In this document: one piece after another, positions 5,371-51,053 of the stretch
How the letters are laid out: the number at the start of each line of letters is the position of its first letter
Position numbering within the stretch: position 1 is the first letter of the stretch
Assembly: GCA_903936705.1 (NCBI GenBank)
Contig: CAIZWN010000005.1
Coordinates: forward strand, 123,883 to 187,882
Length of the DNA: 64,000 bases
Direction: 5' to 3'
Source of the DNA: an uncultured Myxococcales bacterium
GTDB taxonomy: Bacteria > Myxococcota_A > UBA9042 > DTJE01
Program-made: the position numbers and the translations under genes
Notes under the pieces: generated by a model
Told to the model about the DNA's origin: nothing
Databases searched by the model: none
The model's input: only the letters and a program-made list of their open reading frames with translations

Positions 5371-6723
5371 ATGCTGCGGGCCATCATGGCGTTCTTTCGC
5401 ACCGGACCTGATCGCCCGATGATGTCCGAAGATCCCTTGAGGATCAGGCGCATGTACGAACACATGCGCTGGAGCGTGTTCCTGTCGGTCACTCTGGGCT
5501 ACGGCTTCTTCTACGTCATCCGCACGAACTTTGCCGTGGTCAAGAAGCCGATGCTGGACGAGGGCATCTTTACGACCACCGAGATGGGCCTGATCGGCTC
5601 GGCCTTCCTGGCTGTGTACGCACTCGGCAAGCTGCTGAACGGGTTTCTGTCGGACCGGGCCAACGTGCGCCGGTTCATGGCTACGGCTCTGCTGCTGGGC
5701 GCGCTGGTCAACCTGCAGCTCGGCTCCAGCCGGTCGTTCACGACGTTCCTGGTGCTGTGGGGGCTGAACGGCTGGCTGCTGTCGGTCGGTTCCGCACCCA
5801 GCGTTGTCGCACTGTCTCAGTGGTTTTCGCCACGTGAGATGGGTACTCGCTATGGTGTCTGGAGCATCAGCCACAGCCTGGGCGAAGGCTTGACATTCAT
5901 AGTCACCGCCGCCATGGTGGCCGATTTCGGCTGGGAGTGGGGATTTCGCGGGCCTGCGCTGCTGTGCATCGGCGCAGCACTTGTCCTGTTCCAGACACTG
6001 GCAGACAGGCCGCAGACGTACGGGCTGCCACCTGTTACCACCTACAAGAACGACCATCCGCCCGTGCAGCAGGCGTCGTCTGGCATGTCGGTAGGCCGGC
6101 TGCAACTGGAGGTCCTGAAGAATCCAGCCATCTGGATTCTGGGCCTGTCGGCTGCGACGATGTCCGTCGCTCGTTACGGAATCAACAACTGGGGCGTCCT
6201 GTATTTGCAGGAAACGAAGGGCTACTCGCTGAAGGAGGCCGGGACCGTGCTGGCGGCATACCCGGTGGCGGCAATGATTGGAGCCGCGCTGTCGGGCCTC
6301 TTGTCCGACAGGTTCTTCGGCGCCCGACGGAACTGGCCGGCCCTGCTGACTGGCATCGTGGAGGCTGTCGCCCTGGTTGCACTGGTGCTGGTGCCGCCGG
6401 GGCACGTGATTCTGGACGCGACAATCCTGGCAGTATTCGGTCTTTCGCTTGGGGCGCTGCTGGTCTACCTGGGCGGCCTTATGGCGGTGGACCTGGCTCC
6501 CAAGCGGGCGGCAGGCGCGGCAATGGGCGTGATCGGCGCCTTCGCATATGCGGGCGCCGCGATCCAGGACACGGTATCAGGCTGGCTGCTGGACAACGGC
6601 AAGGTGGTTGAATCCGCCGTCACACGTTACGACTTTACCCCTGTCATCGTCTTCTGGATCGGCGCTTCACTGCTGTCGATCCTGCTGACCCTGACGGTGT
6701 GGAATGCCAGGGCGCAGGAATAG
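5371..6723 (+). CDS. MFS organophosphate:phosphate antiporter (GlpT/UhpT-like)
   Basis: MRWSVFLSVTLGYGFFYVIRTNFAVVKKPML parallels the GlpT N-terminal signature ([31 protein letters not shown]); 12 TM pattern; GAGG RBS before ATG 5371. Confidence 0.7.
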   Translation: MLRAIMAFFRTGPDRPMMSEDPLRIRRMYEHMRWSVFLSVTLGYGFFYVIRTNFAVVKKPMLDEGIFTTTEMGLIGSAFLAVYALGKLLNGFLSDRANVRRFMATALLLGALVNLQLGSSRSFTTFLVLWGLNGWLLSVGSAPSVVALSQWFSPREMGTRYGVWSISHSLGEGLTFIVTAAMVADFGWEWGFRGPALLCIGAALVLFQTLADRPQTYGLPPVTTYKNDHPPVQQASSGMSVGRLQLEVLKNPAIWILGLSAATMSVARYGINNWGVLYLQETKGYSLKEAGTVLAAYPVAAMIGAALSGLLSDRFFGARRNWPALLTGIVEAVALVALVLVPPGHVILDATILAVFGLSLGALLVYLGGLMAVDLAPKRAAGAAMGVIGAFAYAGAAIQDTVSGWLLDNGKVVESAVTRYDFTPVIVFWIGASLLSILLTLTVWNARAQE

Positions 6724-6756
6724 ACCTTTCAGCACCCGCAAGAGGAGGCCTTTGCC

Positions 6757-9700
6757 ATGACCCATCACCTGCTTGGACGCATGACCGGTCTGCCGATGGC
6801 CTCAATCGCACTGCTTGCGGCACTTTGCCTGGCGCCGAATCGCTCTGTTGCTGAAGCCGCCGAACCGCCGCCAGGGGTGCAGCCCGACAGCTTGTACGTC
6901 GTTGCTGTATCGCACCTGGACACCGAGTGGTTATGGACGATCGTCGAAACGATCCGGGACTACATACCGGCAACCTTCCGCGACAACATGGATCTCCTGG
7001 ATCGGCACCCGGGATTCAAGTTCGGATTCGAGGGCGCCCACCGCTACTACATGCTGCGCGAGTACTACCCGGATTTGTGGCAACGCCTGAAGGGATACGT
7101 GGCAGACGGGCGATGGTCGCCTGCAGGAAGTGCGCTGGAAGGCGGCGACGTGAACATCGTTTCGCCCGAATCGCTGATGCGGCAGTTCCTTTACGGCAAC
7201 GGCTTTTTTCGGCGCGAATTCGGGCGCACAAGCGTCGATGTCTTCCTGCCGGATTGCTTCGGGTTCGGATGGGCCCTTCCATCGGTAGCCGCGCACTGCG
7301 GTTTGATCGGATTCTCGACGCAGAAGCTGACGTGGGGTTCCGCCTATGGCATCCCGTTCGACGTGGGCCGGTGGCGCGGTCCGGACGGCGCCGAGATCGT
7401 GGCGGCGTTGCGCCCGTGGAACTACGCGGCCGGCCTCGATGGAGACTGGACGCGCGCACAGCGCTGGACCGACGCGCTCGATCGGCAGGAGGCGGTGTCG
7501 GGCATGCGATTCGGATACGCATATTTCGGCGTAGGAGATCGAGGAGGTTCGGTAGGCGAGGATTCCGTTGCCAACCTTGAAACGAACATGGCCGATACAG
7601 GGCCGGTGCGCCTGAAATCCGAACCGCCGGACCAGTTCTTCAAGGACCTGACTCAGGACCAGTGGGCGGCACTTCCCGTGTACGACGGCGAACTGGTGCT
7701 AGCCACCCATGGGACAGGTTCCTACACGTCACAATGCGCGATGAAACGTTGGAACCGGCAGAACGAACAACTGGGGGACGCGGCCGAGCGAGCTGCGGTC
7801 GCAGCATCGTGGCTGGGCGGTCTGCCCTACCCCGCCGAATGGCTTGCAAACGCCTGGTTCCGCTTCCTTGTGCACCAGTTCCATGACGATGTAACGGGCA
7901 CCAGCATTCCCGAGGTCTACTCGAACTCGTGGAACGATGAACGACTGGCACAGCACCGGTTCGCTAGCGTTCTGTCGGCTGCGGCGGGATCGGTTGCTCG
8001 TGCCCTGGACACAACCTCAATCGGCGTACCGCTGGTCGTGTACAACGCGCTTGCAATCGATCGCGAAGATGTGGTCGAGGCCTTCGTGCGCTTTCCCGAA
8101 GCGCCGCCAGCGCATGTACGGGTGTTCGGTCCCGGTGGCGCAGAGGTACCCTCCCAGGTGATCGGCGAACGCGACGGGGCTGCCCGTATCGCCTTCCTGG
8201 CCAATGTGCCGGCAACCGGGTTTGCCGTGTACGACGTTCGCCCATCCGATGTTCCGTGCTCGCTTGCGACCGGACTGTCCGCAACGCAGGCAGGGCTTGA
8301 AAATGGCAGATACCGGGTCACGATCGACTCGAACGGTGACGTATCAAGCGTCTTTGACAAGGCGGCCGGCGTGGAAACCCTGGCCGGCCCCGTGCGGTTC
8401 GCAATGTTCAGCGACATGTCGCTAAGCTACCCGGCGTGGGAGATAACCTGGTACGACCTGGCCGAAGGCGCCAGGGAATACGTTTCGGCTGCCCCGACAA
8501 TCACGGTCGTCGAGGCAGGTCCCGCGAGGACCAGTGTTGAAATTCGACGCGAATATGCATCCGATCAGGGCACATCGACCTATGTTCAACGGCTGCGACT
8601 GGGCGCCGGAGGTTCGGGGGATCGCGTTGAATGGGATACCGAAATCGACTGGCACACCAGGATGTCACTGCTGAAAGTCGAGTTCCCGCTGAAGCATACG
8701 GCCCCCAAGGCCACCTTCGACCTTGGGCTTGGCGCAATTACACGGCCGAATTCCACACCGGATCTGTACGAGGTGCCTTCGCAACAGTGGGCGGATCTCA
8801 CGGCCCCCGACCTGTCCTATGGCGTCTCAATCCTCTCGCTTGACAAGGTGGGATGGCACAAGCCGGACGACGAAAAGCTGTATCTGACCCTTCTTCACAC
8901 GCCGATGTTACCCGAGCACCACCACGACACCAACGACATCGGGCACCATCACACTGGCTGGGCAATTTTCGGCCACACGGGGGACTGGACGAACGGTACC
9001 GTCCCGCAGGCCGCCAGGTTCAACCAGCCTCTGGTGGCATTTCAGGCGCCATCGCACGCCGGGACTCTGGGGCGTAGTTGGGGCCTCGCGCGGGTATCGG
9101 ATCCGGCGGTGGCCATTCGCGCCTTGAAGCAGGCCGAGGATTCCGACGAGGTCGTGGTGCGAATTCAGGAGACATCGGGAACGGCCCGGAACAACGTGCG
9201 CATTGAGATTGCGACGGGCATTGCCGAGGCACGCGAGGTCCGTGGTGACGAACAGCCGAAGGGCGAGGCTGTAATCGTTGACGGGTCGCTGATCACGAAC
9301 CTGACGGCCTTCCAGCCGCGAACGTTCGCGGTGCGACTGTCGGCGGCAGCAACCAGGCTTGCGCCTGCGGAATCAAGTCCGGTTGCACTGCCGTACGACA
9401 CGGACGTGCTGTCGTTCAACGAGGCACGGGCCGACGGCGCCTTTGACGTTGGTGCCGGCGTTGCCTGGGCTGCCGAGCAGTGGTCGTCGACGCTGGCCGT
9501 TGGTGGGGTCGATTTCCAACTGGGGCCATCGGCTGCCGGGCAATCCAACGCTGTTTCGTGCTTAGGACAGTCGATTGCCATCAATCCCCTTGAAGGCCAG
9601 CGCCTGAACCTGTTGGCCGCCGCCGTTGGGGATGTAGAGGCTACATTCCTTGTAGGCGACAAGCCCGTCGCACTTGCGGTTCAGGATCACGCGGGGTTCA

Positions 9701-10329
9701 TAGGCCAATGGGACAGCCGCGTGGTTGACGGAGGTTTTGTCGAGACGCCGATGCCCGCGCTGCCTGGCTTCCTGAAACAGGCCGAACCGGTCTGGTATGG
9801 AACACACCGGCACCTTGCCGATGGCGACGACATCTATGCCTTCAGCTACCTGTTCAGGTACGTGCTGGACGTGCCCCCAAACGCGACGTCGCTGACCCTG
9901 CCAAACGACCCGCGCATCAAGATCCTGGCCATCACACTGACGGACGACCCCGGCGGGCTGACGGTTCCGGCCTCGGTGATCTTCGACGATTTCGACCCGC
10001 TGCGGCGTCCCCTGGCAGGGTGGGAACCAACCCCCGCACAGCCAGAACCTGTTCCGGATACGGCCGAGGAGACCGAGGTCACGATGCCAGACCAAGAGGA
10101 CGAGAACCTTCCTGACGTCATGCGCGACACTTCCGGCGACGATTCGACCGCAGAGGTCGCCGATGCACCCGGCGACACCACGACAACCGAGATTCCAGGA
10201 ATCGGCAAGCATTCGTCCGGATGCCAGTCGAATACCGGCGGACATCCAGCATCCTTGGTTTTGTCGGTACTGGCTATTGCTTTACTGCTGATGACCCGCC
10301 GCCTTCGATCCTGTCGCAGGACGGCCTGA
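6757..10329 (+). CDS. Secreted GH38 alpha-mannosidase with C-terminal MYXO-CTERM sorting tail
   Basis: Signal peptide; GH38 catalytic-region motifs (HLDTEWLW, DCFGF); acidic Pro/Thr-rich linker then SGCQS..LVLSVLAIALLLMTRRLRS (Gly-Cys, hydrophobic helix, Arg cluster). Confidence 0.8.
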   Translation: MTHHLLGRMTGLPMASIALLAALCLAPNRSVAEAAEPPPGVQPDSLYVVAVSHLDTEWLWTIVETIRDYIPATFRDNMDLLDRHPGFKFGFEGAHRYYMLREYYPDLWQRLKGYVADGRWSPAGSALEGGDVNIVSPESLMRQFLYGNGFFRREFGRTSVDVFLPDCFGFGWALPSVAAHCGLIGFSTQKLTWGSAYGIPFDVGRWRGPDGAEIVAALRPWNYAAGLDGDWTRAQRWTDALDRQEAVSGMRFGYAYFGVGDRGGSVGEDSVANLETNMADTGPVRLKSEPPDQFFKDLTQDQWAALPVYDGELVLATHGTGSYTSQCAMKRWNRQNEQLGDAAERAAVAASWLGGLPYPAEWLANAWFRFLVHQFHDDVTGTSIPEVYSNSWNDERLAQHRFASVLSAAAGSVARALDTTSIGVPLVVYNALAIDREDVVEAFVRFPEAPPAHVRVFGPGGAEVPSQVIGERDGAARIAFLANVPATGFAVYDVRPSDVPCSLATGLSATQAGLENGRYRVTIDSNGDVSSVFDKAAGVETLAGPVRFAMFSDMSLSYPAWEITWYDLAEGAREYVSAAPTITVVEAGPARTSVEIRREYASDQGTSTYVQRLRLGAGGSGDRVEWDTEIDWHTRMSLLKVEFPLKHTAPKATFDLGLGAITRPNSTPDLYEVPSQQWADLTAPDLSYGVSILSLDKVGWHKPDDEKLYLTLLHTPMLPEHHHDTNDIGHHHTGWAIFGHTGDWTNGTVPQAARFNQPLVAFQAPSHAGTLGRSWGLARVSDPAVAIRALKQAEDSDEVVVRIQETSGTARNNVRIEIATGIAEAREVRGDEQPKGEAVIVDGSLITNLTAFQPRTFAVRLSAAATRLAPAESSPVALPYDTDVLSFNEARADGAFDVGAGVAWAAEQWSSTLAVGGVDFQLGPSAAGQSNAVSCLGQSIAINPLEGQRLNLLAAAVGDVEATFLVGDKPVALAVQDHAGFIGQWDSRVVDGGFVETPMPALPGFLKQAEPVWYGTHRHLADGDDIYAFSYLFRYVLDVPPNATSLTLPNDPRIKILAITLTDDPGGLTVPASVIFDDFDPLRRPLAGWEPTPAQPEPVPDTAEETEVTMPDQEDENLPDVMRDTSGDDSTAEVADAPGDTTTTEIPGIGKHSSGCQSNTGGHPASLVLSVLAIALLLMTRRLRSCRRTA

Positions 10330-39524: not shown

Positions 39525-39806
39525 ATGGGAACAAGCAATTCACCGCGATTGCCACACGACCGGGAATGGCAGCTTCAGGATGCCAAGAATCGTTTCAGCC
39601 AGGTGGTGGATTCGGCAGTGCATGATGGCGCTCAGACCATCACCTTGAGGGGGAAACCTGCGGCGGTAGTTGTCTCTTTCGACGAATACCGCAGGCTGAC
39701 ACAGCCACGCATCGGCTTGTCAGCGTTCTTCGAAAAATCCCCACTGCATGGCGTCGATCTTGATCTTGGCCGCAGTGCCGACCTGCCCCGAGAGGTGGAT
39801 TTGTGA
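39525..39806 (+). CDS. Phd/YefM-family antitoxin
   Basis: Typical Phd N-terminus (W.L.DAKNRFS.VVD.A..G.Q.ITLRGKPAAVVVS..EY). Confidence 0.8.
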   Translation: MGTSNSPRLPHDREWQLQDAKNRFSQVVDSAVHDGAQTITLRGKPAAVVVSFDEYRRLTQPRIGLSAFFEKSPLHGVDLDLGRSADLPREVDL

Positions 39807-40222
39807 AGTACCTTCTTGATACCTGCCTGATTTCCGAACTGGTGAAGAAGACGCCGAATTCAGCGGTCGTCAGGTGGCTGGACGAACAGGATGAACACAG
39901 CCTTTACCTCAGCGTCCTGACCATCGGAGAACTGCAGAAGGGGATCTGCAAACTTCCGGATGGTGCCCGAAAGGATGATCTTCATGCCTGGGTTGAAAAT
40001 GATCTTGCCCTGCGTTTTTCCGGACGAATCGTCGACGTTGACCTGGAAACCGTGCTGATCTGGGGCCGGTTGCTGGCACAGTCCGAACAGAAGGGCGTGA
40101 TTCTGCCGGTAACGGATTCGCTGATTGCAGCCACCGCAATAAATCACGGATTGGTTGTGGTTTCACGCAACGTCAAGGACATGGAAAGATGCCTGGTTAG
40201 CGTGTGCAATCCTTGGGCCTGA
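39803..40222 (+). CDS. VapC-type PIN-domain toxin
   Basis: LLDTCLISEL ... acidic PIN residues; GTGA overlap with the antitoxin stop. Confidence 0.8.
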   Translation: MKYLLDTCLISELVKKTPNSAVVRWLDEQDEHSLYLSVLTIGELQKGICKLPDGARKDDLHAWVENDLALRFSGRIVDVDLETVLIWGRLLAQSEQKGVILPVTDSLIAATAINHGLVVVSRNVKDMERCLVSVCNPWA

Positions 40223-40482
40223 TCCAGGCACCCGCATACGATTCGAGTCCTGTCGCAAATGAACAAATCGGTACGTCGCCAGATTGTGGCAATCGGATCG
40301 AAAAGAAACGGGCCGCGCCGAACGTTCGACTTTCCCCATCGTTGGGGAAGCTACCAGCCCGGCGCGGCCAGGGGCTCTTTGTCCGCCCCACAATAGGGAC
40401 GGCGCGGGTTCGGGGGCAATGGTCAAGACCTGGGCACGGGACCGGCGTCCTTGAACGCAGGTCATCTGGCCGTCGCCTCGAG

Positions 40483-40607
40483 CTCGAAGGGCGCAGCCCC
40501 AGGTTGTTGTTGCGGTTGCCCGGGTCGTTGTTGTTGCGGTTCGCAGCCCGGGCGTTCCTGGCATCGTTGTTCCAGGAGCCGCCCCGATTCACCCGGTTAG
40601 AGCCCGT
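40483..40607 (-). repeat. DGR template repeat (TR), sense strand minus; overlaps the 3' end of the RT gene
   Basis: 125-bp match to 42638-42762 with 17 mismatches, all at TR adenines (T on the plus strand); TR translation is AAC/Asn-rich (NRVNRGGSWNNDARNARAANRNNNDPGNRNNN). Confidence 0.9.
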
Positions 40608-48656: not shown

Positions 48657-48815
48657 GGGCCGGTTCCGGGGGTGCTCCGGAGGGAGCCGTCGGAGGCGCG
48701 GCCCACCATACGGGGGAAATAGATGATTGGGCCGCGCCGAGACTGCAGGAGGCCGGTGGGGGCAGAGCCCCCGCCGGAACTCCGGTCCCGGAGGGGCACC
48801 CCCGGAACCGGCCCT
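48657..48815. other. Highly structured intergenic element: 19-bp perfect long-range inverted repeat (GGGCCGGTTCCGGGGGTGC / GCACCCCCGGAACCGGCCC) enclosing two strong internal hairpins
   Basis: IR arms at 48657-48675 and 48797-48815; internal stems GGCGCGGCCC/GGGCCGCGCC (48702-48738) and CCGGTGGGGGC-agag-CCCCCGCCGG (48751-48775); flanking CCGGAGGG direct repeats. Confidence 0.5.
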
Positions 48816-48941
48816 CCGTAGAGTCACGCTATCGCCAACCGGCTCCAATTACTGCGCCACCTGGGATCTTCGACCTTCTTGTTCCTTGAAGGCCGTCCAG
48901 CAATCGGCCAGAATCGTTCGCAGTCCGGCCAGGGGGTCCCG

Positions 48942-51053
48942 ATGCTATCGTGGCGCGACAGGGGTTCAAATGGCGCGCCGGCGCGGCTTGCTGTGCAGGC
49001 TGTGCTGACAATGCTGGCAACGTTCGCGACTGCGTGCGGCGGTTCTGACGTGACGCCGTCGCAGCCCGGGGACGTGCCGCAGGATGGCGCTGTTGACGTT
49101 TACACCGACCTGCCCGGCGAGGTACCGCTTGATGTTCTTTTCGATACTACGCCGGACAATCCAGGGCCGGACGATTCTGGACAAGACACCACGGGACCGG
49201 TTGATACTGGACCGGACGACCTGGGGCCAACGTCCCTGTTGCCGCCCCTTCCGCTGCGCGTGGAAGGAAGGAACATCGTGGACGCCACTGGACACAGGGT
49301 GCGCCTTCAGGGTGTCAACTGGGACGGCGGGCACCAGGAGGATTTCGTTCCCTATGGGTTGGACTATCACACACCTGCCGAAATCGCGGGCAAGCTGCGG
49401 AAAATGGGCTTCAATTCGGTCCGGCTGACCTACAGCGACCGGATGGTTCGCGACGATCCCGTCCCCCCCGACGGGAGGCTGGCTGCGAATCCCAGCCTGC
49501 AGGGAAAAGGCGCGCTGGCGACATTCGACGCAGTGGTTAATGCATTGGCAGCCGAGGGGATCCTGATCATCCTGAACAACCACACGTCCGACGCCACCTG
49601 GTGCTGTTCCCTGGATGACGACAACTACCTCTGGCACAACTCGCGCTTCAGCGAGGCAGACTGGATGGCAGACTGGGTCAAGCTGATCCGCAGGTACCGT
49701 GACGTCCCGGCCGTGGTGGGGGCCGACCTGCGCAACGAACCGCGCCAGCCAGCCCAGTGGGGAACAGGCGGCGGGATCGAGACCGACTGGCCCTCGGCGG
49801 CCGAACGCTGCGGCACGGCGTTGCTGGCCGAGAATCCCGACCTGGTGATCCTGGTCGAAGGCGTCGTGTTCGCGAACGACCTGTCGGGCGCCGCCGCGCG
49901 GCCCGTAAACCTCCCGGCGGCGCACCTGGCCTACTCGGCCCATGACTATGGATGGGCCCTGCCAGCCAGTGCCGACACATACGACGACTTTGCGATGGTC
50001 GCGGACAGCATGTGGGGGTACCTGCTGTCGGCCCAGCCGCCCTCCCCCGTTTGGCTGGGCGAGTTCGGCTGCTTTCACCGCGAGATCGGCAACAAGTGGT
50101 GGCCGTGGATCAGCCGCTATATCGCCGAACGGGAACTGGACTGGTCGTTGTGGACGATCTTCGCCTATGGCGGCTGGACATGGGGCCTGCTGGATCCGAT
50201 CACGCTGGAACCTGCGGACCGCGCGTTCTGGGAATCGGTTAAGGCGCTGATGACGCCGGAACCAATCGTCCCGATCCCCGAGGTAGAGCCGATCCCGGAC
50301 CAGCCAGTCGAAGACAGCGGCCCGGCATCGGATGCCGAGGTTATCGAAACGGTTGAAGGTCCCGGCCCCGAGGTCCAGTGGGTCACCATTCCAGGCGGGA
50401 CGCTTCGGATGGGGGCGACTGACCTGGGGTTGTTGTCGCAGCCGGTGCTGGACGTGACGGTCCCCTCGTTCCGCATCGGGCGTACCGAGGTCACCGCGGC
50501 CCAGTACGCCGCGTGCGTTACGGCCGCGGCATGCACGGCCCCGAACGGCAGCCAGGTCGGGGACGACGCCCCGGTCCAGTGGGTGACGTGGGACCAGTCG
50601 AAGGCGTTCTGCGCATGGGCAGGCGGGCAACTGTGCACCGAAGCCCAGTGGGAACTGGCGGCTGGAAACGGTTCGATGGGCAGCCGGTATCCTTGGGGGA
50701 ACCAGGCACCCACATGCGCCGATGCCGTGTGGAACGGGCCTGGCTGCCTGGACCTGGGCCCAGCGAATGCCTGCTCGAGGCCTGCTGGCAACAACGTGTG
50801 GGGGCTGTGCGACCTGGCCGGGAACGTGATGGAGTGGGTGGAGGACGATTGGCACGCCTCCCATCTGGCAGCGCCGACCAACGGCAGCGCCTGGGTGGAC
50901 GATCCGCGTTCATCGGCCCGCGTATTGAAGGGCGGCGGTTTCGCCCACAACTTTGCCGACGGTCTACGGACGGCCTGGCGGGACAGGGGAATGGCTGGAG
51001 ACAACGCTGCCATGTTCGGAACGCGATGCTGCGGGACGCCTGCGGCCCCGTGA
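48942..51053 (+). CDS. Lipoprotein with GH5 (cellulase-family) glycoside hydrolase domain fused to a C-terminal FGE-sulfatase/C-type-lectin-fold domain
   Basis: Lipobox FATACGG; GH5 features (NEP catalytic acid in RNEPRQP, IIILNNHT); C-terminal RIGRTEVT..QY..C ... GLCDLAGNVMEWVEDDW ... VLKGGGF. Confidence 0.65.
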   Translation: MLSWRDRGSNGAPARLAVQAVLTMLATFATACGGSDVTPSQPGDVPQDGAVDVYTDLPGEVPLDVLFDTTPDNPGPDDSGQDTTGPVDTGPDDLGPTSLLPPLPLRVEGRNIVDATGHRVRLQGVNWDGGHQEDFVPYGLDYHTPAEIAGKLRKMGFNSVRLTYSDRMVRDDPVPPDGRLAANPSLQGKGALATFDAVVNALAAEGILIILNNHTSDATWCCSLDDDNYLWHNSRFSEADWMADWVKLIRRYRDVPAVVGADLRNEPRQPAQWGTGGGIETDWPSAAERCGTALLAENPDLVILVEGVVFANDLSGAAARPVNLPAAHLAYSAHDYGWALPASADTYDDFAMVADSMWGYLLSAQPPSPVWLGEFGCFHREIGNKWWPWISRYIAERELDWSLWTIFAYGGWTWGLLDPITLEPADRAFWESVKALMTPEPIVPIPEVEPIPDQPVEDSGPASDAEVIETVEGPGPEVQWVTIPGGTLRMGATDLGLLSQPVLDVTVPSFRIGRTEVTAAQYAACVTAAACTAPNGSQVGDDAPVQWVTWDQSKAFCAWAGGQLCTEAQWELAAGNGSMGSRYPWGNQAPTCADAVWNGPGCLDLGPANACSRPAGNNVWGLCDLAGNVMEWVEDDWHASHLAAPTNGSAWVDDPRSSARVLKGGGFAHNFADGLRTAWRDRGMAGDNAAMFGTRCCGTPAAP

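Follow-up and report, generated by a model that had tools for sequence, protein, structure and literature searches.

The window analyzed here is the whole 64,000-nucleotide (nt) stretch of contig CAIZWN010000005.1 from an uncultured Myxococcales bacterium. It harbors a palindromic intergenic element, with its core at 48657-48814, between a toxin-antitoxin (TA) pair and a lipoprotein gene. Upstream on the + strand lie the MNT-type nucleotidyltransferase, antitoxin of an MNT/HEPN pair (47872..48225; Pfam Polbeta, NTP_transf_2), and a HEPN-type NTase_sub_bind protein (48198..48599; Pfam PF08780, E = 7e-22), which has exact matches in many assemblies. Downstream, a GH5 cellulase-FGE-sulfatase fusion lipoprotein, assigned by Pfam (48942..51053, +) and with an exact 703-aa product on record, starts at the called ATG 48942 behind an AGGGGG Shine-Dalgarno sequence (48930-35). 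The element fills most of the 342-nt spacer, beginning 57 nt past the HEPN stop codon and ending 127 nt before the GH5-FGE start, and it shares one strand with the HEPN and GH5-FGE genes. Open reading frames overlapping it have no Pfam match, and its six reading frames, concatenated and compared with 5.8 billion proteins, have no homologue; it is non-coding. Between 48300 and 49100, no sigma-70-like promoter is predicted and a scan returns 0 terminator-like sites. A U tract is missing, the 3' flank reading UCCGUAGAGUCACG.

The two arms are perfect 19-mers (GGGCCGGTTCCGGGGGTGC) located at 48657-48675 (+) and 48796-48814 (-), with 120 nt between them, exactly as an earlier sequence-only reading of this DNA had reported. 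This 19-mer is found twice in the window against 0.09 matches expected, no shuffle gave two, and no other occurrence exists in the 64 kb with up to three mismatches. The inverted repeat continues to 29 nt with 86% complementarity (48657-48685 / 48786-48814) and, as RNA, yields a closing stem (P1) of 22 bp including one G:U (48657-48678 / 48793-48814). In the minimum-free-energy (MFE) structure, a short stem extension inside this closing helix leads to a three-way junction bearing two hairpins. In the folding test that the sequence-only reading had proposed, the + strand folds at -127.9 kcal/mol (z = -8.33 versus dinucleotide shuffles, 0/200 of which are as good). The mirror fold of the - strand, at -117.5 kcal/mol (z = -7.45), is less favorable by 10 kcal/mol. 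MFE and centroid structures concur, with no alternative (anti-terminator) fold evident, and an inverted-repeat scan ranks the element as by far the strongest local inverted repeat of the window.

The first hairpin (P2, 48695..48738, +), defined by fold and covariation, is formed by a perfect 11-bp stem (48695-48705 / 48728-48738) and a 22-nt loop carrying the conserved motif ACCAUACGGGGGAAAUA. The perfect stem previously placed at 48702-48738 is thus real, although it counts 11 bp rather than 10 and its left arm starts 7 nt earlier. The second hairpin (P3, 48748..48783, +), defined likewise, has 11 G/C-type pairs with one G:U (48753-48763 / 48767-48777), a GGGGGC AGA GCCCCC core, and a 4-bp stem (48748-51 / 48780-83) on which it stacks; the G/C stem read earlier at 48751-48775 with an AGAG loop was correct in kind but about 2 nt off, the loop being AGA. 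The 5' arm of P1 (48657..48678, +), made of the 19-nt perfect arm and 3 further nt, is followed by the inner closing-stem extension and junction strand (48682..48691, +), which are defined by the MFE structure and by covarying pairs in helices 2 and 3. Unpaired GGA triplets occur at 48679-81 and 48692-94. The 3' arm (48786..48814, +) is the reverse complement of the 5' arm, as seen in both the inverted repeat and the fold. The direct repeats CCGGAGGG (48677-48684 and 48788-48795), described earlier as flanking, do exist, but they are merely the inner portions of both arms.

Two homologous full copies are present in L030, a contig of an uncultured Myxococcales metagenome-assembled genome (Loclat_bin-06029), at 7139-7302 (+) and 6718-6889 (-). 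Both organisms were sampled in one and the same series, and they have a 16-mer, GGGGGCAGAGCCCCCG, in common. Within the window and within L030, the arm motif is found only in element sequence. A covariance model, R1, built from the three full copies (172 positions, 59 pairs), scores 180.7 bits for the window copy and 128.6 and 147.8 bits for the two L030 copies, in the order given above. Aligned as O (window copy), A, and B (L030 copies), the three share a pairwise identity of 72-74%, the two L030 copies being no closer to each other than to the window copy (72% vs 74%). In each full copy, two inverted arm units (GGGCCGGNNCCGGGGGTGC plus a ~20 nt flank) surround a ~110-nt core with two hairpins. 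As the inverted arms bracket this two-hairpin core, a single strand, be it DNA or RNA, folds into a T-shaped three-way junction.

The alignment also defines the probable limits of the element. On the left, a flank common to copy A (TCCTCAA...CCGC; 48639..48656, +) starts at TCCTCAA, with no likeness further left, making 48639 the probable left limit. On the right, the flank shared with copy A (..ACGCTATC..GGCTCC; 48815..48845, +) is identical at 10 of the 14 nt after ACGCTAT and the likeness stops past GGCTCC, which places the probable right limit at 48845. With similarity between O and A spanning TCCTCAA (48639) to GGCTCC (48845), the element measures ~207 bp for a core of 48657-48814. Just left of it, GCCAACCATACGCCAGAAA (48618-48636) resembles the P2 loop region GCCCACCATACGGGGGAAA (48701-48719) with 79% identity as a direct repeat; this likeness could be due to chance or be the remnant of an older copy.

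Folded separately, all three copies display a long P1, a three-way junction, P2 with its large loop, and P3 with its G5/C5 core. Standard pairs fill 92% of the pair cells of the three-copy alignment. Compensatory double changes affect 13 of the 59 pairs; shuffling the columns gives 5.0 +/- 1.7, and shifting the partner by 1-3 columns gives 0-3. The double changes are found in 4/10 stem pairs of P2, where 100% of the cells are paired, and in 4/15 pairs of P3. The P1 5' arm is the most conserved part of the family, and near-invariant segments comprise the outer arms, the P2 loop (ACCWUGCGGGGGAAAUA, kept in 3/3 copies), and the P3 core. On the modelled strand, G:U pairs outnumber A.C pairs 4 to 1, a weak hint of a function as RNA or of a preferred strand. 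These covariation statistics rest on three sequences and none is strong; furthermore, inverted DNA repeats can also stay complementary by arm-to-arm conversion. Four unpaired GGA triplets in O suggested a CsrA sponge, a role that was discarded since just one of them is left in copy B.

The genomic contexts of the copies are unrelated. In L030, the copies have opposite orientations, facing away from each other, and sit between an amidohydrolase and a renalase-like oxidoreductase gene, beside ribA and glycine-cleavage (gcv) genes. Around them, no toxin-antitoxin pair, diversity-generating retroelement (DGR), or GH5 gene is found, nor, across the 21 kb for which genes were called, any reverse transcriptase (RT) or mobile-element gene. 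One L030 copy points toward the 3' end of a convergent gene; two of the three copies lie ~120-150 nt upstream of a co-directional gene. Beside copy B, solo arm units, each equivalent to the P1 5' arm of the window copy, occur in tandem on one side (38 nt x 4.0) and on the other (43 nt x 2.2), bringing the cluster to two full copies and six solo arms inside 700 bp. The arm units can thus multiply alone into tandem arrays. In two relatives with the same gene order, whose oxidoreductases are 87% and 78% identical to that of L030, the corresponding spacer is 93 and 94 nt long versus 737 nt, indicating that the cluster is an insertion or an expansion that arose in the L030 lineage. The alignment is good at the gene ends; inside the spacers, divergence is too high for the junctions to be placed. 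One of these "empty" spacers, of 94 nt (L060), holds at 9947-9968 the sequence ACCGCGGGGCCGA, which resembles the outer arm end ACCGCGGGCCGG; it may be a preferred target or a proto-arm, the spacers being too diverged to decide.

From the source genome, ~70 kb could be examined for known classes and for further copies, and from the L030 genome 8 kb. Rfam 15 returned only noise for the window at E <= 10 (best match ar7, 18.5 bits vs a threshold of 60, E = 0.33) and no match for the L030 copies at E <= 1, so that this second check proposed earlier yielded no family. No blastn match of the element was obtained in 72,556 PLSDB plasmids or in 50,697 INPHARED phages. Scanning the exact 19-mer arm against one genome per GTDB species returned 29 loci, with L030 as the only homologous one. 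The 28 others are single, evidently chance matches in high-GC genomes, e.g., a coding Ig-like repeat in L017. R1 detected nothing else above noise in ~560 kb of scanned sequence. On the 64-kb window with filters off, its next best score is 14.6 bits, and no second copy exists in 6 kb further left either; on the other side, the protein at the right edge of the window has no database record. The search for other copies thus failed within the window and its 6-kb flank, and succeeded in L030. A literature search found no described myxobacterial MITE (miniature inverted-repeat transposable element) or REP (repetitive extragenic palindromic) family.

In the JGI metagenomes, the two-arm pattern was found only in two soil/sediment contigs, L033 (1193-1330) and L034 (2900-3037), as a 138-nt hairpin directly past secA, with arms CCCCGGCGCCGGGGGTGCC and a loop containing AUCGGGGGGAC. 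This hairpin carries the arm motif of the element; since R1 does not match it, it is treated as unrelated, with distant kinship or convergence as possible origins. As this collection did not return even the known copies, the metagenome negative is weak. In IMG/VR, the arm and core patterns matched only phage terminators, coding runs rich in Pro and Ala, and a tandem hairpin repeat of a giant virus, all of them unrelated.

The element is no artefact of assembly. An independent contig from another sample (L001) reads through it and differs by only 1 nt, within a C run, and the partial contigs of several other assemblies are identical to it as far as they extend. The difference (L001 10560-10580, equivalent to window 48758-48775) is a 1-nt deletion in the P3 C5 run, GCCCCGCC vs GCCCCCGCC in the window, which would unpair one G of P3. 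Variation between strains or an error in the homopolymer may account for it. In both organisms, short-read contigs stop inside the element, from both sides. Those of the window organism end at ~48617-48718 from the left and at ~48684-48789 from the right, and L061 and L062 begin in L030 copy B. L036 (window organism) and L061 (L030 organism) both have their first base at model position 104, where the P3 palindrome begins. Such breaks are usual assembler behavior at repeats or strong palindromes; they are compatible with the existence of further copies, of which they are no proof. The element accounts for the assembly breaks of short reads at this spot in these organisms.

Judged by the features that define the known classes, the element possesses, like MITEs, terminal inverted repeats (19/19 perfect arms, 29 nt at 86%), and the arms are kept in all copies. 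Like the inverted REP doublets termed REPINs, it forms hairpins from two inverted units, and its units also occur in clusters. In contrast, its arm unit is not the short imperfect palindrome with a 5' GT[AG]G that defines a REP unit: its self-complementarity is limited to CCGG..CCGG, and a GTAG is present in the right flank of O alone, kept in neither A nor B. As for retrons, no RT adjoins any of the three copies, and the window copy has the HEPN and GH5-FGE genes as neighbors. The cis-acting initiation-of-mutagenic-homing (IMH) or hairpin elements of DGRs sit 3' of the variable repeat (VR), whereas the element lies 5.9 kb from the VR of the window (42632-42762), and the 3' end of GH5-FGE has no match to the template repeat (TR).

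The reading best supported by these data, which we put at an even chance, is that of a low-copy, structure-constrained, MITE/REPIN-like palindromic repeat belonging to a new, previously undescribed family. The window copy would be one of a small set of non-coding palindromic repeats scattered through the genomes of uncultured freshwater Myxococcota-like bacteria; that the family occurs in at least two genomes is shown by the copies themselves. The MITE- or REP-like nature put forward by the sequence-only reading agrees with the occupation of unrelated intergenic contexts in both orientations, with the solo-arm arrays, with the filled and empty states of the L030 site, and with a fold kept by compensatory substitutions despite drift. 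That homologous copies stand in unrelated contexts in L030, together with GH5 homologues devoid of the element (see below), points to a mobile-repeat-like element rather than to a dedicated switch of a neighbor.

Several observations weigh against this assignment. No target-site duplication (TSD) was found; the sole flanking direct repeat, the 8-nt CGCCAACC (48617-24 / 48833-40), was rejected as a TSD, its right copy (48833-40) falling inside sequence conserved in copy A, which has no equivalent repeat. No transposase, REP-associated tyrosine transposase (RAYT), or insertion sequence with the termini of the element was seen in the DNA examined, in which no dedicated RAYT search was made. As noted, the GTAG head and the self-palindromic unit of REPs are missing. 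The copy number amounts to three full copies in all, from two organisms of a single sample series, and one copy per 64 kb plus a 6-kb flank is far below typical REP or MITE densities. Diverged members would have escaped the genome and metagenome scans, which relied on exact arm patterns. The presence/absence polymorphism is that of the L030 site only. For the window locus, no empty site was found because the closest relatives lack synteny, the nearest GH5-FGE homologue being 61% identical and none providing a syntenic locus. Finally, as the L030 copies are no closer mutually than to the window copy, there is no sign of recent transposition, and such long-term constraint would also fit an RNA gene.

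The upstream surroundings comprise a complete DGR with an HRDC accessory gene (40398-44778, - strand). It encodes the RT (40589-41650, -), bAvd (41623-41967, -), an HRDC-domain accessory protein (41957-42466, -), and a 717-aa FGE-sulfatase target protein with a C-type-lectin fold (42625-44778, -). Its TR (40477-40607) and VR are 85% identical, 17 of the 19 mismatches falling at TR adenines (A->G 9, A->T 8). An inverted repeat (40398-40417 / 40611-40630; core GGTTCGGGGGC / GCCCCCGAACC, 11 bp perfect) brackets the TR, the RNA of which could hence be stem-closed; the core is loosely like the element arm motif GGTTCCGGGGG, be it by chance in G+C-rich sequence or more. The C-terminal FGE-sulfatase domain of GH5-FGE is homologous to the DGR target domain (45 nt, 76%; 42820-42864 vs 50793-50837), yet, with no VR matching the TR, GH5-FGE is not a current DGR target. 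Immediately beyond the DGR, a second toxin-antitoxin pair is found (PhdYeFM antitoxin, 39525-39806; PIN toxin, 39803-40222), so that, with MNT/HEPN opposite, the DGR block is bracketed by TA modules on both sides. A 61-nt direct repeat (80%; 40238-40298 vs 47893-47953) represents the 5' end of the MNT gene, a piece of which lies next to the PIN gene, just beyond the TR. MNT-like sequence thus flanks a 7.6-kb block of DGR, TPR, and Ser/Thr-kinase genes, and may be the trace of its insertion or rearrangement. The Ser/Thr kinase gene (46040-47770, -) contains in its C-terminal part a 15-nt tandem repeat (7 registers, 46182-46331) encoding a PVVA[EK]-type low-complexity tail.

The main rival to the repeat reading is a stand-alone structured non-coding RNA (ncRNA) gene, i.e., a new ~170-nt small RNA (sRNA) class built of a long closing helix, a three-way junction, and a conserved 22-nt loop, duplicated or horizontally transferred, and acting in trans, e.g., by binding a protein via its ACCWUGCGGGGGAAAUA loop. 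We regard it as possible but doubtful. The structured sRNA that the sequence-only reading had also envisaged is consistent with the covariation of every helix, with pairing kept at such low identity, and with the sequence conservation of both the P2 loop and the P3 G5/C5 core. The excess of G:U over A.C pairs, the better fold of the + strand, the position of two copies upstream of co-directional genes, and a copy number as low as a gene would have fit it as well. The same covariation, however, could result from arm-to-arm conversion and is weak with three sequences, while Rfam has no counterpart, neither a sigma-70-like promoter nor an intrinsic terminator is found, and conservation does not extend beyond ~18 nt upstream of the stem. 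Moreover, an RNA gene would explain neither tandem arrays of up to four solo closing-stem arms nor why the L030 copies are inverted, adjacent, and within an insertion absent from relatives. The very stability of the hairpin, as well as its location on the same strand as both neighbors, a short distance from each, would suit a cis-element: a terminator without U tract or 3' stabilizer of the MNT/HEPN operon, or the GH5-FGE leader or attenuator proposed in the sequence-only reading, whose C-rich strands could in principle pair with the Shine-Dalgarno sequence. Such a role is unlikely. Without a U tract, the element is not an intrinsic terminator, and no alternative fold that a switch would use is evident. 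The other family members adjoin unrelated genes, one of them facing a convergent 3' end. In addition, the closest GH5 homologues for which DNA could be examined (60% and 69% identity) have 87-nt upstream spacers without any R1 match, and in the GH5-FGE homologue of 61% identity the preceding gene overlaps, leaving zero spacer. The leader or attenuator proposal is accordingly not supported.

Two further explanations invoke systems of known mobile elements. That the element serves as the single-strand origin (sso) of, for instance, a rolling-circle or integrative element, or is a T-shaped terminal hairpin that a mobile element carrying the TA/DGR island left behind, seems very improbable. Its position at the edge of the TA-DGR-TA block is suggestive, and a long stem with two internal palindromes is the geometry of parvoviral inverted terminal repeats (ITRs) and of some single-strand origins; the flank ACGCTATC reads TAGCGT on the other strand, which we take to be similar to the ssoA CS-6 motif, perhaps by coincidence. 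Nevertheless, the L030 copies reside amid housekeeping genes with no mobile-element gene within 21 kb, the plasmid and phage collections contain no match, and no Rep or relaxase gene is seen nearby. Hardly credible, in turn, is a part of an RT system, either a retron-like msr/msd template with a1/a2 arms or an accessory structure of the DGR 6 kb upstream. Retron ncRNAs do have long inverted repeats flanking internal hairpins, a complete DGR does lie at 40.4-44.8 kb, and GH5-FGE does carry the FGE/C-type-lectin domain of the DGR target. The only RT in reach, however, is of DGR type, 7 kb off and on the other strand, with none in 21 kb at L030. The hairpins of DGRs sit immediately 3' of the VR, and GH5-FGE has no VR-like match to the TR. 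RT-linked readings are thus largely refuted by context; a link to the DGR was also dropped on account of the distance of the VR and of the absence of a DGR near the L030 copies.

Under the repeat reading, the family would spread or expand like a MITE or a REPIN. A trans-acting enzyme would recognize the conserved arms, possibly as a folded single strand, and an inserted copy would be retained since its fold matters to that enzyme or to the host transcript. The window copy is most likely transcribed as part of a HEPN-GH5 intergenic RNA, in which its 22-bp stem might passively stabilize the transcript, be processed by RNase III, or insulate transcription. Its role there is probably confined to that of a very stable hairpin, and it is not a regulated switch specific to either neighbor. 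The hairpin should therefore not be annotated as a riboswitch or attenuator of the GH5-FGE gene. A bolder and rather improbable proposal is that of a new ~170-nt structured nucleic-acid class in Myxococcota, with the T-fold (22-bp stem, 22-nt loop, G5/C5 hairpin) as the functional unit; this unit would either act in trans as an RNA together with a protein partner or be the single-stranded DNA (ssDNA) substrate of a putative HUH/tyrosine-type enzyme copying the element and its arms into new intergenic sites. If the ssDNA-substrate version were true, a REPIN-like commensal system would exist beyond the Proteobacteria, in which REPINs are known. If the repeat reading holds, it adds a new structure-constrained palindromic repeat family, unusual by its three-way-junction core and its amplifiable arm units, to the poorly sampled uncultured lake Myxococcota. 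The biological weight of the finding stays modest unless the element is an RNA gene or the substrate of a new mobilizing enzyme.

By analogy, the element functionally resembles REPINs and bacterial interspersed mosaic elements (BIMEs), as well as bacterial MITEs such as the Correia and ERIC (enterobacterial repetitive intergenic consensus) sequences, while its T-core and the conserved loop that it holds between the arms are uncommon among them. REPINs and BIMEs, REP doublets mobilized by RAYTs in Pseudomonas and E. coli, are likewise extragenic and non-coding, and pair two inverted units into a long ssDNA or RNA hairpin kept by compensatory change. Their units also occur single, clustered, or in tandem, and they are frequently co-transcribed and can stabilize mRNA. 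The element differs from them by an arm unit that is no short palindrome and has no conserved GTAG head, by a conserved ~110-nt spacer core with two hairpins instead of a short loop, and by a very low copy number in the DNA covered. The Correia elements of Neisseria (Correia repeat enclosed elements, CREE, or neisserial miniature insertion sequences, NEMIS) and the ERIC sequences of enterobacteria (or intergenic repeat units, IRU) are similar in size (100-200 bp) and in their terminal inverted repeats of ~20-30 bp. They too are intergenic and show presence/absence polymorphism among relatives; they are commonly co-transcribed with their neighbors, their paired termini forming a double-stranded RNA cleavable by RNase III. 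Correia elements, however, are characterized by TA target-site duplications, an IHF site, and hundreds of copies, none of which is shown for the element, and neither Correia nor ERIC sequences share its structured and covarying interior or its tandemly multiplied termini. Retron ncRNAs (msr-msd, a1/a2), first found in Myxococcus, are of similar size, share a myxobacterial host group, and are built of long inverted repeats closing internal hairpins; they differ by their RT, which is found beside none of the three copies, by msd stems far longer than the hairpins of the element, and by the lack of solo tandem arms. Finally, the T-shaped terminal hairpins exemplified by the adeno-associated virus (AAV) ITR and the single-strand origins of rolling-circle replicons share the long palindrome broken by two short ones into a three-way junction. 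These structures are located at genome ends or on Rep-encoding plasmids and phages, whereas the copies of the element are chromosomal and intergenic, without replicon genes nearby.

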